From positions 62,239 to 126,238 of the forward strand of contig JBDRIV010000003.1 in assembly GCA_043815505.1 (NCBI GenBank): 64,000 nucleotides of DNA. Reading direction: 5' to 3'. The notes under the pieces are model-generated. The model was not told the origin of the DNA. It did not search any database and worked only from the letters and a program-made list of their open reading frames with translations. The position numbers and the translations under genes were made by a program. This DNA is from a bacterium. GTDB taxonomy: Bacteria > Patescibacteriota > JABMPQ01 > JBDRIV01. Shown here one piece after another: positions 18,260 to 50,607 of the stretch (positions within the stretch are counted from its first letter, which is position 1; each line of letters starts with the position of its first letter).

Positions 18260-18363
18260 CAACAAAAAACTGTAGACGACTAAGAAGTTTTCTAGTAAGG
18301 ATTCGTGAGGACCTCCTCTTCACATTTCCTTCTAAATTGCTTCTTGTCTACAGTTTTTTGTTG
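18260..18363 (+). ncRNA. Candidate small RNA or structured element: 18-bp perfect inverted repeat enclosing about 68 nt
   Basis: CAACAAAAAACTGTAGAC (18260-18277) pairs perfectly with GTCTACAGTTTTTTGTTG (18346-18363). Lies downstream of the consensus promoter. Confidence 0.3.
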
Positions 18364-18712: not shown

Positions 18713-18812
18713 CCCGGTAGTACAACTTATTGATAAATTGATTTGTTTACCTTTCTTTTATTTTTGTAGAAAGGATTATTTTGTTCTTTTCTCACCCGGT
18801 TGTACTACCGGG
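18713..18812. repeat. MITE-like element, 100 bp, 14-bp terminal inverted repeats CCCGGTAGTACAAC / GTTGTACTACCGGG
   Basis: Perfect 14-bp TIRs and an AT-rich interior with an internal hairpin (CCTTTCT/AGAAAGG). Related element at 46126..46234. Confidence 0.5.
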
Positions 18813-42753: not shown

Positions 42754-45399
42754 TTATAACTCCCCCAAATGTTTATCAATTATTTTTAATCTCTCAGAAA
42801 ACGAAGTTTGTTTTTTCTTTTCCAATTCTACCACTTCCTCGGGAGCGCCGGCCATAAATTTTTCGTTCTGCAGTTTTCTTTCAATCCCCTCCAAATATTT
42901 AGCAACTTCTTTTCTTTCATTTTCCAGTCTTACTTTTTCGCGGGTGACGTCAATTTTTCCCCGCAAATCAATTGCAACGTAACCTTTTTTGAGAGCTATT
43001 TTTAAGATACCTTTTTCTTTGCCAATTTTATTTTTTAGATAACAACGACTTAGATATTCAATTATTTCTTTTTGTTTACAGGCTGTTTTGTCGCTGACAA
43101 AAATATCCAGCTTTTCATTTGGTTTAATTTGATATTCGGCACGAACATTTCTAACAGTAGTTATAATCTCCTGCAAGTTAGCAAATTCATTTTCCGCGCG
43201 AGTATTTTTTGCAGCTGGTTTTGCTTTCGGCCATGCTGCAACGATCAATAATTCATCTTTTTCCTGAATGTCTGCCCAAATAGTTTCAGTAATAAATGGT
43301 ATAAAAGGATGGAGCATAATCAGAACTTCTGATAAAACTTTAGTGAGAACGTCGGCGGTTATTTTTTCGTTGGCTTGAATTTTGGAAATCTCTACATACC
43401 AATCGGCCAATTCATGCCAAACAAAATCGTAAAGTTTTTGACCAGCATCGCCATAACGATAAGTTGTGAAAGATTCTTTTATTTCTTCTTTCAAATTTTC
43501 TAAACGGGAAAGAATCCATTTGTCAGCTAAGGTTTCACTCTTTAATGTGCGCGGAATTTTTCCAGAAAATCCTTTAGAATCAGTTAAATATCTGGCAATA
43601 TTCCAAATTTTATTAGAAAAGTTTCGGTAACCAGCAATTTTTTCTTCATGCAATTTCAAATCCTGACCAGCTCTTGTTCCTACAACTAAAGCCATGCGCA
43701 AAGCATCCGTTCCATATTTGGCTGTCATGAGTAACGGATCAATTCCTGTTCCTTTAGATTTACTCATCTTCTGACCAGTTTTCGGATCCAAAATCATGCC
43801 GTGAAAATAAATTGTTTTAAATGGAACTTCATCTAAGAAATACAGTGAGAGCATCATCATGCGAGCTACCCAGAAAAATATTAAATCCCAGCCCGTTTCC
43901 ATAACATCAGTTGGGTGAAACTCCTGTAGATCACTATTTTTCTTTCCTTCATTTTTTGGCCAGCCTAAAGTTGAGAATGTCCATAAGCCAGATGAAAACC
44001 AAGTATCAAGTGTATCTTCATCTTGATAAATTTTACTTGAACCGCAGTCGTTACATTTTTTCGGTGGTTTCAAGCCAACATGAATTCCTTTTCGTTTCTT
44101 GCCTTTGCCATACAAAGTTTCGTCGTAACAATCTTTACAATAATAAGCGGGAACTTGATGACCCCACCAAATCTGACGCGAGATGCACCAGTCCTGAATA
44201 TTGGCTAACCAATTGTAATAAAGTTTGTTGAAACGTTCCGGAACAATTTTGGTCTTCCCAGTTTTGACAGCTGCTAAAGCTTTATCAGCTAGAAGTTTAA
44301 CATCCACAAACCACTGCGTGGTAAGAAGTGGTTCAATTACTGATGAACATCTTTCACAAAGCCCAACTGAATGCTTGTAATCTTCTTCTTTTTCCAGTAG
44401 TCCAAGCTTTTCCATTTTCTCTACAACTTTTTGTCGTGCTTTAATTGATTCTAAATCCTGAAAATCTTTGCCGGCCGCTGTCGTCATTTTTCCTTCTTTA
44501 TTAATAACAGAAATGGCCGGCAATTTATGGCGCTGCCCCATGGTAAAATCGTTTGGATCATGAGCCGGCGTTACTTTAACGACGCCGGTGCCAAAATCTT
44601 TATCAACTAATCTGTCCTTAATAACAGGAATTTCGCGACCAATAATTGGCAACACCAAGATTTGGCCAATATATTTTTGGTAGCGCTTGTCATCAGGATT
44701 CACAGCCACGGCCGTATCACCCAGCATAGTTTCCGGACGCGTTGTTGCCACTACAATAAATTCTTCAGAATCTTTGAGCGGATATTTAAAATACCAAAGC
44801 TTCCCTTGTCGATCTTCGTACTTTACTTCTAAATCAGAAACTACCGATTCACAGCGCGTGCAAAAATTTGTGAGACGCAAATCGCGATAAATTTTATTGT
44901 CATTATATAAACGAATAAATGATTCTTGCACAGCGAAGTACATATCTTTATCCATGGTGAATTTCTCCCGACTCCAATCACAGCTGGCTCCCATCGTTTT
45001 TGTTTGCTCAACAATTTTTGGACGAGTCTCTGCTACCCACTTCTTAACTTCAGCTAAAAACTTATCGCGTCCTAAATCATGCCGATTCAAACCTTTTTCT
45101 GATAGTTTTTTTTCAACCACCACTGTAGTTCCAATTCCCGCACTATCAGTTCCTGGCAACCACAAAGTTTTGCGTCCGTTCAGGCGCTGATAACGAATCA
45201 TAATATCTTGAATCGTCAAAACTAAAGCATGACCTAAATGTAAATCACCAGTTACATTTGGTGGTGGCATAGAAATGGTAAAAGGTTTTCGCTTTTTAGC
45301 ATTCGATAGTTTTTCCGGTGTAAAATAGCCCGATTTTTCCCATTTATCATAAATCGCGCGCTCGTTTTCTTTTGGATTGTAATTCTTTGGTAATGACAT
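42754..45399 (-). CDS. valS: Valine--tRNA ligase
   Basis: 881 aa. HIGH (PNVTGDLHLGHAL) and KMSKS motifs and a C-terminal coiled coil. Confidence 0.95.
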   Translation of the reverse strand: MSLPKNYNPKENERAIYDKWEKSGYFTPEKLSNAKKRKPFTISMPPPNVTGDLHLGHALVLTIQDIMIRYQRLNGRKTLWLPGTDSAGIGTTVVVEKKLSEKGLNRHDLGRDKFLAEVKKWVAETRPKIVEQTKTMGASCDWSREKFTMDKDMYFAVQESFIRLYNDNKIYRDLRLTNFCTRCESVVSDLEVKYEDRQGKLWYFKYPLKDSEEFIVVATTRPETMLGDTAVAVNPDDKRYQKYIGQILVLPIIGREIPVIKDRLVDKDFGTGVVKVTPAHDPNDFTMGQRHKLPAISVINKEGKMTTAAGKDFQDLESIKARQKVVEKMEKLGLLEKEEDYKHSVGLCERCSSVIEPLLTTQWFVDVKLLADKALAAVKTGKTKIVPERFNKLYYNWLANIQDWCISRQIWWGHQVPAYYCKDCYDETLYGKGKKRKGIHVGLKPPKKCNDCGSSKIYQDEDTLDTWFSSGLWTFSTLGWPKNEGKKNSDLQEFHPTDVMETGWDLIFFWVARMMMLSLYFLDEVPFKTIYFHGMILDPKTGQKMSKSKGTGIDPLLMTAKYGTDALRMALVVGTRAGQDLKLHEEKIAGYRNFSNKIWNIARYLTDSKGFSGKIPRTLKSETLADKWILSRLENLKEEIKESFTTYRYGDAGQKLYDFVWHELADWYVEISKIQANEKITADVLTKVLSEVLIMLHPFIPFITETIWADIQEKDELLIVAAWPKAKPAAKNTRAENEFANLQEIITTVRNVRAEYQIKPNEKLDIFVSDKTACKQKEIIEYLSRCYLKNKIGKEKGILKIALKKGYVAIDLRGKIDVTREKVRLENERKEVAKYLEGIERKLQNEKFMAGAPEEVVELEKKKQTSFSERLKIIDKHLGEL

Positions 45400-45590
45400 T
45401 GTCTGTCTTTTTTGTCAAAAAAAATACTGCTTATGTTTATAATAAGTCAAAAAAGGATAATTGTAAAAACGGATTGACGAATAGTAATTTATCTGTTAAA
45501 TTTACTCTCGCATTCCCAAGCACGGAAATTGCTTGGATTTATGTTATAATAAATAAAAAGTTAAAGCTCAAAAGTCAAAACTTAAAAGGA

Positions 45591-45950
45591 ATGCGTAAAA
45601 GCTCGTGGTCTGAAGCTGGGGTTGACCCTAAACAAAGATGTTATAGATTTAGTCTACAAATAATAAAACTGTATTCTAAGTCTATAATTTATAAAACATT
45701 ATACAATCAATTGCTTCGTTCCGCGACATCAATTGGTGCCAATATTGTTGAAGGAAAATCCTCTAGTTCCCGCAAAGAGTTTAGACAATATTATGTAATG
45801 GCATTAAAAAGTGCCAATGAAACCAGATATTGGCTAGGATTGCTAAGAGATGGCAAAATAACCGATAGTGAAAGAATAAATAAACTGCTTGATGAAGCTA
45901 TACAGATTTCTAAAATAATCGCCAGTTCTGTGATAAAATTAAAACAATAA
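45591..45950 (+). CDS. Four-helix-bundle protein (23S-rRNA intervening-sequence-type protein family)
   Basis: About 120 aa from the ATG at 45591. The track ORF begins at an upstream TTG. YRFSLQIIKLY...ATSIGANIVEG...SANETRYWLGL matches the TIGR02436-like family. Confidence 0.65.
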   Translation: MRKSSWSEAGVDPKQRCYRFSLQIIKLYSKSIIYKTLYNQLLRSATSIGANIVEGKSSSSRKEFRQYYVMALKSANETRYWLGLLRDGKITDSERINKLLDEAIQISKIIASSVIKLKQ

Positions 45951-45987
45951 TTTTTGCCTTTTGACTTTTAACTTTTGAATTAATTAT

Positions 45988-46125
45988 ATGCCTAAAAGAA
46001 CGTATCAACCGAAAAAAAGAAAGCGAGCCAAGACTCACGGTTTTACCAAAAGAATGCGTACCAAAAATGGACGTAATGTTCTTAAACGTCGTCGCGCCAA
46101 AGGTCGCAAAAAGCTGACTGTTTAA
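45988..46125 (+). CDS. rpmH: 50S ribosomal protein L34
   Basis: 45 aa, [45 protein letters not shown]. Not in the ORF track because it is short. Immediately precedes rnpA as in most bacteria. Confidence 0.85.
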
Positions 46126-46234
46126 CCCTGTAGTACAACCTTATAATGTATTTATTATAATTATGCTTTCAATTAGTTTTCGCAAAACAATAACAATCAT
46201 CTTAGTGTTACAACAAAAAAGTTGTACTACTGGG
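46126..46234. repeat. MITE-like element, 109 bp, TIRs CCCTGTAGTACAAC / GTTGTACTACTGGG, filling the rpmH-rnpA spacer
   Basis: Starts at the base after the rpmH stop codon and ends 14 nt before the rnpA ATG. Same TIR core as the element at 18713..18812. Confidence 0.5.
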
Positions 46235-46248
46235 TTTAAAACCTTATA

Positions 46249-46590
46249 ATGCTTCCGAAAAAGAATCGCATACTTAAAGATAAAGAATTCTCCTACCTTT
46301 ATCGGAAAGGCAAGTTTGTCAGCTGTGGTTGTATAATGATGAAATATTTACCTACCACCAAAGATGCTCCCTCTCGTTTCGGAATTGTAATTTCTACCAA
46401 AGTTTCAAAGAAATCTACGATTCGCAATAAAATTAAAAGACAGATCCGCGACGTTCTTAAAAAGAACTTCTCAAAATTTTCTACCGGTTACGACGCCGTT
46501 ATCATGACCAATCAGAATATTCTGGAAAAAAGTTATACTGAAATTGAAGAAGCGCTAAATAAATTATTTGCCAAAGCTAAATTTATATAA
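46249..46590 (+). CDS. rnpA: RNase P protein component
   Basis: 113 aa. Basic, with RnpA motifs (RNKIKRQIRDVL). Confidence 0.85.
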   Translation: MLPKKNRILKDKEFSYLYRKGKFVSCGCIMMKYLPTTKDAPSRFGIVISTKVSKKSTIRNKIKRQIRDVLKKNFSKFSTGYDAVIMTNQNILEKSYTEIEEALNKLFAKAKFI

Positions 46591-46877
46591 TGAAAAGACT
46601 TCTGAAAAATTTTGTCTTTCTACCTCGCCAAACTGTTGCTCGGCTAATTAATTTTTATCAACAAACTGTTTCCCCCGACCATAGCGAGATGGGAAAAATG
46701 AAACACCCGCACGGTTTTTGCCGCTACTATCCAAGTTGCAGTGAATACTCCAAGCAATCAGTAACAAAACACGGTGTGCTTAAGGGTGGTTTTTATTCAT
46801 TGCTTAGAATTCTTCGCTGTAATCCGTGGTCGCGCGGTGGCGTTGATCAAATACCATTAAACAACAAAACCAAATGA
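46590..46877 (+). CDS. yidD: Membrane protein insertion efficiency factor YidD
   Basis: CxxC...HGxxKG motif (YYPSCSEYSKQSVTKHGVLKG). Confidence 0.85.
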   Translation: MKRLLKNFVFLPRQTVARLINFYQQTVSPDHSEMGKMKHPHGFCRYYPSCSEYSKQSVTKHGVLKGGFYSLLRILRCNPWSRGGVDQIPLNNKTK

Positions 46878-50312: not shown

Positions 50313-50607
50313 TTGTTTTTGTTTTATATGTTTTTTTATGGGGATGAAAAAAGCGCTATTTCAGGCGCTTTTGCAGAGGATTATTACACTTGTTATTATA
50401 GCATATCTTTACATTATAGTCAATATGTTTTATGATATAAGTTATCCTTGTAGAAAAACCCTTGATTATTCCCTATTTTAAGGGATAAACTAAAGATTGA
50501 ATAAATGGATTTAAAATGGTACTCTAAGTTTATAAAAATAAGCCCGGTAGTACAATCCGGGTGTAAATACATACAAACAAAAATTGATCAGTAATTGTAC
50601 TATCAGG

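Follow-up and report, generated by a model that had tools for sequence, protein, structure and literature searches.

A miniature inverted-repeat element from an apparently undescribed CPR family probably fills most of the rpmH-rnpA spacer of a Patescibacteria genome

The 109-bp segment at positions 46126-46234 of the window, the 64-kb stretch of Patescibacteria DNA analysed here, is in our assessment (probability about 0.8) a MITE-like copy of a miniature inverted-repeat family of CPR bacteria, carried as a tolerated passenger rather than as a dedicated regulator of the flanking genes rpmH and rnpA. The family appears to be undescribed, as a literature search based on its arm sequences and on keywords returned no MITE family for CPR/Patescibacteria. 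Its members look like non-autonomous DNA transposons of the cut-and-paste type, and the unusual length of the rpmH-rnpA spacer would be explained by an insertion that survived because it rebuilt the L34 stop codon, with no new regulatory device involved. The features of the locus are the following.

45988-46125, plus strand: rpmH, ribosomal protein L34 (45 aa; open reading frame, Pfam PF00468, E = 7.8e-23)
46121-46125: left direct repeat TTTAA, the putative target-site duplication, abutting the left arm (read from the sequence)
46123-46125: TAA stop codon of rpmH, inside the left TTTAA copy
46126-46139: left terminal inverted repeat (TIR) CCCTGTAGTACAAC, 13/14 matches to the family consensus CCCGGTAGTACAAC (derived from 120 arms)
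46140-46220: interior, 81 nt, 21% GC, no open reading frame, without homology to the interior of either other copy in the window
46201-46214: degenerate third arm CTTAGTGTTACAAC, separated from the right arm by 6 nt, with 9/14 matches to the left-arm consensus
46221-46234: right TIR GTTGTACTACTGGG, ending 14 nt before the rnpA ATG
46235-46239: right direct repeat TTTAA, abutting the right arm (read from the sequence)
46240-46248, plus strand: native rpmH-rnpA junction AACCTTATA, 9 nt, reconstructed by taking out the element and one TTTAA
46249-46590, plus strand: rnpA, RNase P protein (113 aa; open reading frame, Pfam PF00825, Ribonuclease_P, E = 2e-26)

The spacer is 123 nt long and consists of CCCTGTAGTACAAC, 81 nt, GTTGTACTACTGGG, TTTAA and AACCTTATA, followed by the rnpA ATG; downstream of rnpA, the gene order continues with yidD, yidC and jag. 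Both arms match the consensus at 13 of 14 positions. An earlier note on this DNA had placed the start of the element at the base after the L34 stop and the end of its right arm 14 nt before the rnpA start codon, and both boundaries hold, with CCCTGTAGTACAAC directly following the TAA. However, the 109 bp that it attributed to the interior are the length of the whole element (the interior measures 81 bp), and the spacer is not entirely occupied by it, since 14 nt remain, made up of TTTAA and the native AACCTTATA. The note had also described AACCTTATAAT as following both this copy and the one at 18713-18812. This 11-mer occurs only at 46137, within the element and overlapping its left arm, and at 46240, whereas the 18713 copy is followed by CATAATTTAGG. 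A related 12-nt direct repeat, AACCTTATAATG, is found at 46137-46148, where the left arm passes into the interior, and at 46240-46251, where it spans the junction and the rnpA ATG. It may reflect chance in AT-rich DNA or be a trace of the insertion history; taking it as a sign of other element boundaries is less parsimonious than the combination of TIRs and TTTAA.

The two TTTAA copies suggest a simple route to this arrangement, in which the element would have inserted at a TTTAA overlapping the rpmH stop codon and the resulting duplication would have rebuilt the stop. Deletion of 46126-46239 in silico yields ACT GTT TAA AACCTTATA ATG, a 9-nt junction, and the reconstructed empty site would carry CTGACTGTTTAAAACCTTATAATG. 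The rpmH-rnpA spacers of fifteen other CPR genomes measure 6-30 nt, a range that includes the reconstructed junction. Both open reading frames are untouched, as is the 9-nt stretch preceding the rnpA ATG, and it is probably because the stop codon, both reading frames and the native junction stayed intact that the insertion was tolerated in a compact genome. A point that counts against this assignment is the length of the direct repeat, which is perfect but comprises 5 nt, whereas the family norm is 3-4 nt. A database search with RnpA returned no relative above 45% identity, the next matches lying at 41-45% and the nearest coming from Falkowbacteria-like CPR genomes; a look-up of the exact protein matched no indexed contig. 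The family motif was absent from 80 distant rnpA loci, in which the 8-mer TAGTACAA, counted on both strands, has a background frequency of about 1 per 62 kb.

Co-transcribed with rpmH and rnpA, the element would fold into a 14-bp stem with one mismatch. The arms indeed pair at 14 positions with a single T/T mismatch, in line with the stem of about 14 bp or more anticipated in the earlier note, and the predicted RNA fold of the element has an energy of -26.4 kcal/mol (z = -2.9). The note had further considered the stem as a possible attenuator. No U-run follows it, the next bases being GGGTTTAAAA / GGGTTTAAAACC, and a terminator scan of positions 45300-46700 called no plus-strand site at 46126-46240. 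Given the missing U-tract, the element is not an intrinsic terminator, and attenuation is unsupported. At most, the stem would act as an RNase III substrate or as a barrier to RNase J. Both enzymes are retained in at least 90% of CPR genomes (PMC12641178), so that cleavage of the stem by RNase III, or protection of the transcript from 5'-3' decay by RNase J, is possible. On the minus strand, the element contains a promoter-like site (46143-46172; TTGAAA, a spacing of 16-18 nt, and TACATT/CATTAT) that points toward rpmH; if active, it would produce an RNA antisense to the rpmH 3' end.

A stable stem between two co-transcribed genes could also be an ancestral, locus-specific regulatory hairpin of the attenuator or RNase III type, with the other copies in the window being coincidental or secondary. 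In bacteria, rnpA is generally expressed at a lower level than rpmH, in keeping with such a device. Nevertheless, we consider this explanation very improbable: besides the missing U-tract, the empty terminator scan and the lack of any Rfam leader match, it leaves unexplained why distant CPR lineages share the same 14-nt ends at more than 50 unrelated loci, why the element is flanked by TTTAA direct repeats and why the 15 other CPR genomes with 6-30-nt spacers lack it. The recurrence of the ends at more than 50 unrelated loci, the direct repeats, the empty sites described below and the short spacers of other CPR genomes together argue for an insertion rather than an ancestral hairpin, and the earlier note's proposal of an inserted MITE-like repeat is supported by them.

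The window contains three copies of the family, one more than the two counted in the earlier note, which had correctly grouped the rpmH-rnpA element with the copy at 18713-18812 on account of their common arms (CCCGGTAGTACAAC / GTTGTACTACCGGG). Apart from 46126-46234, they are the following.

18713-18812, minus strand: copy 1, 100 bp, with perfect arms CCCGGTAGTACAAC / GTTGTACTACCGGG
50543-50607, plus strand: copy 3, 65 bp, with decayed arms CCCGGTAGTACAAT / ATTGTACTATCAGG

In minus-strand orientation, copy 1 ends in GTTGTACTACCGGG, directly followed by an ATG (18712-18710) that opens an 84-aa open reading frame downstream of clpC. A CAT direct repeat (18710-12 and 18813-15) borders the copy on both sides, and its predicted RNA fold has an energy of -34.6 kcal/mol (z = -6.1). 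The 84-aa reading frame shows only a weak match to DUF3006, and because this match begins at residue 34, the true start could lie further in, for instance at the GTG at codon 18. The right end of copy 3 lies directly at the ATG (50608) of a gene for a Polysacc_synt flippase. Since the interiors of the three copies are unrelated, none of them is a recent copy of another, a point that speaks against the mobile-element reading.

Although many weak inverted repeats are present in the window, a chance origin of the element from AT-rich intergenic DNA is excluded by the data. The paired-arm pattern has five matches in the window, whereas none of 100 shuffles contained any; the arms are GC-rich, in contrast to the window (36% GC) and the interior of the rpmH-rnpA copy (21% GC); and identical arms were found in 54 independent contigs. 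All six occurrences of TAGTACAA in the window lie in family arms. A separate inverted repeat with perfect 18-nt arms (CAACAAAAAACTGTAGAC / GTCTACAGTTTTTTGTTG) around a 68-nt loop occurs once in the window, at 18260-18363, in a gap poor in open reading frames and beside a sequence resembling a tRNA T-arm (GGTTCGATTGAAC); ARAGORN found no tRNA in the entire 64 kb.

The family extends well beyond this genome. Metagenome contigs were scanned with one exact arm pattern, paired arms being required, and the same paired ends were detected at 54 loci with GC contents of 34-64%, the majority of which match on both strands. Exact protein look-ups assigned the high-GC loci to one Candidatus Sungbacteria genome and another group to Candidatus Moranbacteria, placements that let the family span CPR classes. 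The occurrence of identical ends in genomes of 34% to 64% GC implies a shared transposase or binding factor. Over 120 arms, conservation covers CCCGGTAGTACAAY and four flanking bases, YATR, and reaches no further out. The 14-bp TIR CCCGGTAGTACAAY is nearly invariant and was found at both ends of 57 non-redundant copies, which, as the element reads, carry CCCGGTAGTACAAY on the left and RTTGTACTACCGGG on the right. The arms always occur as close pairs, giving a total length of 60-131 bp with a variable interior of 30-100 bp that contains no open reading frame. At least seven copies, falling into two interior subfamilies, reside in one Sungbacteria genome. Among about 0.8 Mb of sequence, there were no arm pairs more than 140 nt apart and no transposase gene between arms, a result that counts against the proposed insertion; viral contigs contained just three single-arm matches, which we judged to be due to chance. 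Rfam 15 gave no match at the gathering threshold in the window, and a search of the spacer and 12 loci at an E-value threshold returned only sub-threshold matches to generic miRNA hairpins (E of at least 0.09). The arm consensus ATACCCGGTAGTACAAC presumably resembles the universal 790 region of 16S rRNA, GATACCCTGGTAGTCCAC, a similarity that may be a coincidence.

Several observations made during this survey concern the diversity of the family and its surroundings. In Moranbacteria, a sister subfamily with longer arms (CCCGGTAGTGARAATTTGACTGG / GGTCAAATTTCTACTACCGGG) is present at three different genes (L142 13874-13942, L082 2573-2703 and L103 9760-9882). At L130 3854-4048, two family elements are arranged head-to-tail and only 3 nt apart, indicative of a tandem insertion, and the right arm of the upstream one has decayed. 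About 1.5 kb downstream of pcrA, two loci (L138 13699-15111 and L143 13763-15172) contain a diversity-generating retroelement module, consisting of bAvd and a reverse transcriptase, which is missing from the other sampled Moranbacteria.

The evidence for mobility comes from the flanks of the copies and from orthologous sites. Exact 4-nt direct repeats flank 24 of the 57 non-redundant copies, compared with a mean of 7.4 in permutations, none of which (0/5000) reached 24. The flanks are arranged as CATA..CATA in 12 copies and as TATG..TATG in nine, whereas the inverted arrangement CATA..TATG does not occur. An outward extension of the inverted repeat can thus be ruled out as their source, the flanks being direct rather than inverted. 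Rarer targets, such as CAAG/CAAG and TATA/TATA, are duplicated as well, and across the family the duplications comprise 3-5 nt, with TATG as the commonest target. Filled and empty alleles were compared at rseP and pcrA, whose orthologs were fetched through their proteins and hence without bias toward intact arms. The filled rseP allele of L089 reads GGTAGCATCAAGTGGT TATG [98 nt] TATG ATCATC, whereas L145 and L146 have the identical upstream flank and a single TATG (GGTAGCATCAAGTGGT TATG TTCATC/TTCGTC). In total, one rseP ortholog is filled and three are empty; for pcrA, the numbers are one and six. The PcrA protein tree is star-like, and filled and empty alleles are interleaved in it without resolution. 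Homologous interiors are found at unrelated genes, including cases inside a single Sungbacteria genome, and in L111 and L129, from two related genomes, the mreD-like orthologs have members of different subfamilies at one and the same start codon. The direct repeats and the empty orthologous sites together point to a transposon-type insertion with a 3-4-bp duplication. The family thus shares with MITEs a small, non-coding body, common TIRs, target duplications, dispersed copies and insertion polymorphism, the last of these seen at the family level, for pcrA and rseP.

The copies are not distributed evenly with respect to genes. In 35 non-redundant copies, or about 60%, the ATG directly after the right arm opens a long reading frame with a native-looking N-terminus, whereas start-codon abutment would be expected for about 16% if TATG/CATA sites outside genes were hit randomly. 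The ATG starts adjoining the right arms agree with public gene calls, and the genes concerned include those for S12, HU, GreA, EF-P, Pth, TrpRS, DnaE, RecO, PcrA and RseP. Empty alleles have a -35/-10 promoter that ends 7-9 nt before the ATG and lack a Shine-Dalgarno sequence, a layout that looks like that of leaderless genes. In 19 of the 35 filled alleles, a -10-like box is located 7-13 nt upstream of the left arm. A single case, the L142 copy of the sister subfamily, hints that the transcription start rather than the codon matters: it has a CAAG duplication and follows a perfect TATAAT at a distance of 6 nt, whereas the next ATG is located about 160 nt downstream. The start-codon copies, moreover, have one polarity, in that the arm nearer the promoter is succeeded by a degenerate second copy of the right arm, or at least by CCGGG; this was seen in about 12 independent cases and never in reverse. 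The third arm at 46201-46214 assigns the rpmH-rnpA copy to the minus strand, opposite to the start-codon copies, so that this copy, positioned on a stop codon and in reverse polarity, is atypical of its family.

Two candidate explanations of the polarity were rejected. An outward promoter within the element does not account for the polarity, as seven such promoters point toward the gene and eight away from it among the 35 copies; the -10 scores show a weak asymmetry (18 versus 6, 11 ties). Translational coupling by a short upstream reading frame starting at the duplicated ATG fails as a general rule, since its stop codon lies anywhere between -103 and +40 with respect to the real ATG.

The placement of the start-codon copies suggests that the family inserts at, or survives only at, the first transcribed bases. 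It is tempting to go further and to propose that leaderless genes are targeted by the elements, in fixed polarity, at their first transcribed bases and that many copies are then kept as a portable leader, although we regard this as a tentative idea that is possible rather than probable. In practice, the target would be the TATG containing the start codon, at a distance of 6-9 nt from the upstream -10 box. The 3-4-nt duplication would regenerate the start codon and often a 5'-terminal AUG as well, and the element would make up the entire 5' leader, serving, for example, to block RNase J by a hairpin at the 5' end or to gate initiation through its structure where a Shine-Dalgarno sequence is lacking. 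If this were true, start-site or start-codon precision would be seen here for the first time in a bacterial mobile element, and the family would mark leaderless expression as widespread among CPR bacteria.

The same observations can be read in another way, namely that the family is mainly a host cis-regulatory module, acting as a 5' leader or operator, whose mobility is historical and whose present copies are kept for their function. Its arms would then be read by a CPR-wide protein or RNase, for instance in protecting transcripts from RNase J or in gated translation without a Shine-Dalgarno sequence. The frequency at true start codons, well above that expected from a TATG/CATA preference, and the uniform polarity are consistent with this notion, as are the -10 boxes upstream of the left arm, which would place the element at the extreme 5' end of the mRNA; however, outward promoters are not enriched, the stop positions of the upstream reading frames show no consistent pattern, and a common regulon or operator is rejected because the genes downstream are housekeeping genes with unrelated functions. 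Six orthologous copies at pcrA have invariant arms, as conserved as the -10 box, while interior, flanks and synonymous sites have diverged. This invariance, unlike what is expected of decaying junk, hints at a host-level constraint or at turnover at a hot spot, but the six copies were collected with the exact-arm pattern, and the sample is biased accordingly. Both arms change together in L138 (TATAAT/ATTATA) and L123 (GCAC/GTGC), yet the six pcrA copies show no covariation, neither in the interior nor inside the arms. In addition, the element is missing from six of the seven pcrA orthologs and three of the four rseP orthologs, and a function of this kind would not apply to the rpmH-rnpA copy, which lies at a stop codon and has the opposite polarity. 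We therefore consider a primarily regulatory family unlikely and retain the interpretation of the rpmH-rnpA copy as a mobile-element insertion carried as a passenger.

Irrespective of its cause, the start-codon precision and polarity of the family are unusual for bacterial MITEs. The polar link to start codons provides a handle, accessible from sequence alone, on how frequent leaderless mRNAs are in unculturable CPR bacteria, and it also bears on how genes cope with a structured leader of 60-130 nt that has no ribosome-binding site. The filled and empty pcrA and rseP alleles of related genomes represent natural experiments that could be read in existing groundwater metatranscriptomes.

Among known systems, the Correia/NEMIS elements of Neisseria offer a parallel in overall form. 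They are 60-160 bp long, lack open reading frames, have TIRs and a short TA duplication and are present in many copies near genes; their co-transcribed hairpins, based on a 26-bp inverted repeat, can be cut by RNase III, and their presence or absence varies between strains. The CPR family is likewise small and non-coding, with TIRs, a short duplication, dispersed copies near genes and presence/absence polymorphism. It differs in its ends, CCCGGTAGTACAAY being unrelated to the Correia sequence, and in its duplication, which comprises 3-5 nt and is mostly TATG rather than TA. Further differences are that about 60% of its copies are placed precisely at start codons preceded by a -10 box, in one polarity, and that it spans CPR classes and genomes of 34 to 64% GC, with no known parent IS.

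Elements of the IS1380/piggyBac type have ends of the form CC(C)...(G)GG and AT-rich duplications of 4-5 bp, and piggyBac itself targets TTAA and excises precisely. Meant only as a lead, the resemblance to the CPR family concerns the three terminal bases and the length of the duplication, with TTAA forming the core of the TTTAA at rpmH; precise excision, as in piggyBac, would also explain the clean empty sites of the family. In contrast, the CPR family prefers TATG over TTAA, and no transposase was found beside or between its ends. RAYT-mobilised REP/BIME repeats are similarly short, palindromic and intergenic, and the CPR arm holds a GTAG. They are co-transcribed and affect mRNA stability, and by analogy the same may apply to the CPR family. 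However, REPs are single hairpins of 20-40 nt without target duplications, whereas the CPR elements have 14-nt arms 30-100 nt apart and direct-repeat flanks, which sets them apart from this class; nor was a RAYT gene encountered. A functional analogy can finally be drawn with Ty3, which integrates at RNA polymerase III start sites, in that position appears to be tied to the first transcribed bases rather than to a long target sequence; Ty3, though, is a eukaryotic LTR retroelement targeted by TFIIIB, whereas the CPR elements are tiny pieces of bacterial DNA, and the start-site link of the CPR family is deduced from the spacing of -10 boxes.

The surroundings of rpmH show further inverted repeats. 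In two other CPR genomes, the rpmH-rnpA spacer measures about 280 nt (L009 9724-10000 and L013 749-1040) and contains other long inverted repeats, such as one with 26-nt arms (AGTTGCCGGATAAAGATTTTAGTTTT) in L009. The rpmH-rnpA junction seems to be a recurrent landing site of hairpin elements. In the window, within 45372-45981, a gene for a 23S-rRNA-intervening-sequence protein (Pfam PF05635) is located between valS and rpmH. It is bracketed by an imperfect 30-nt inverted repeat (45558-45587 / 45952-45981), whose right arm includes a TTGACT resembling the -35 box of rpmH.
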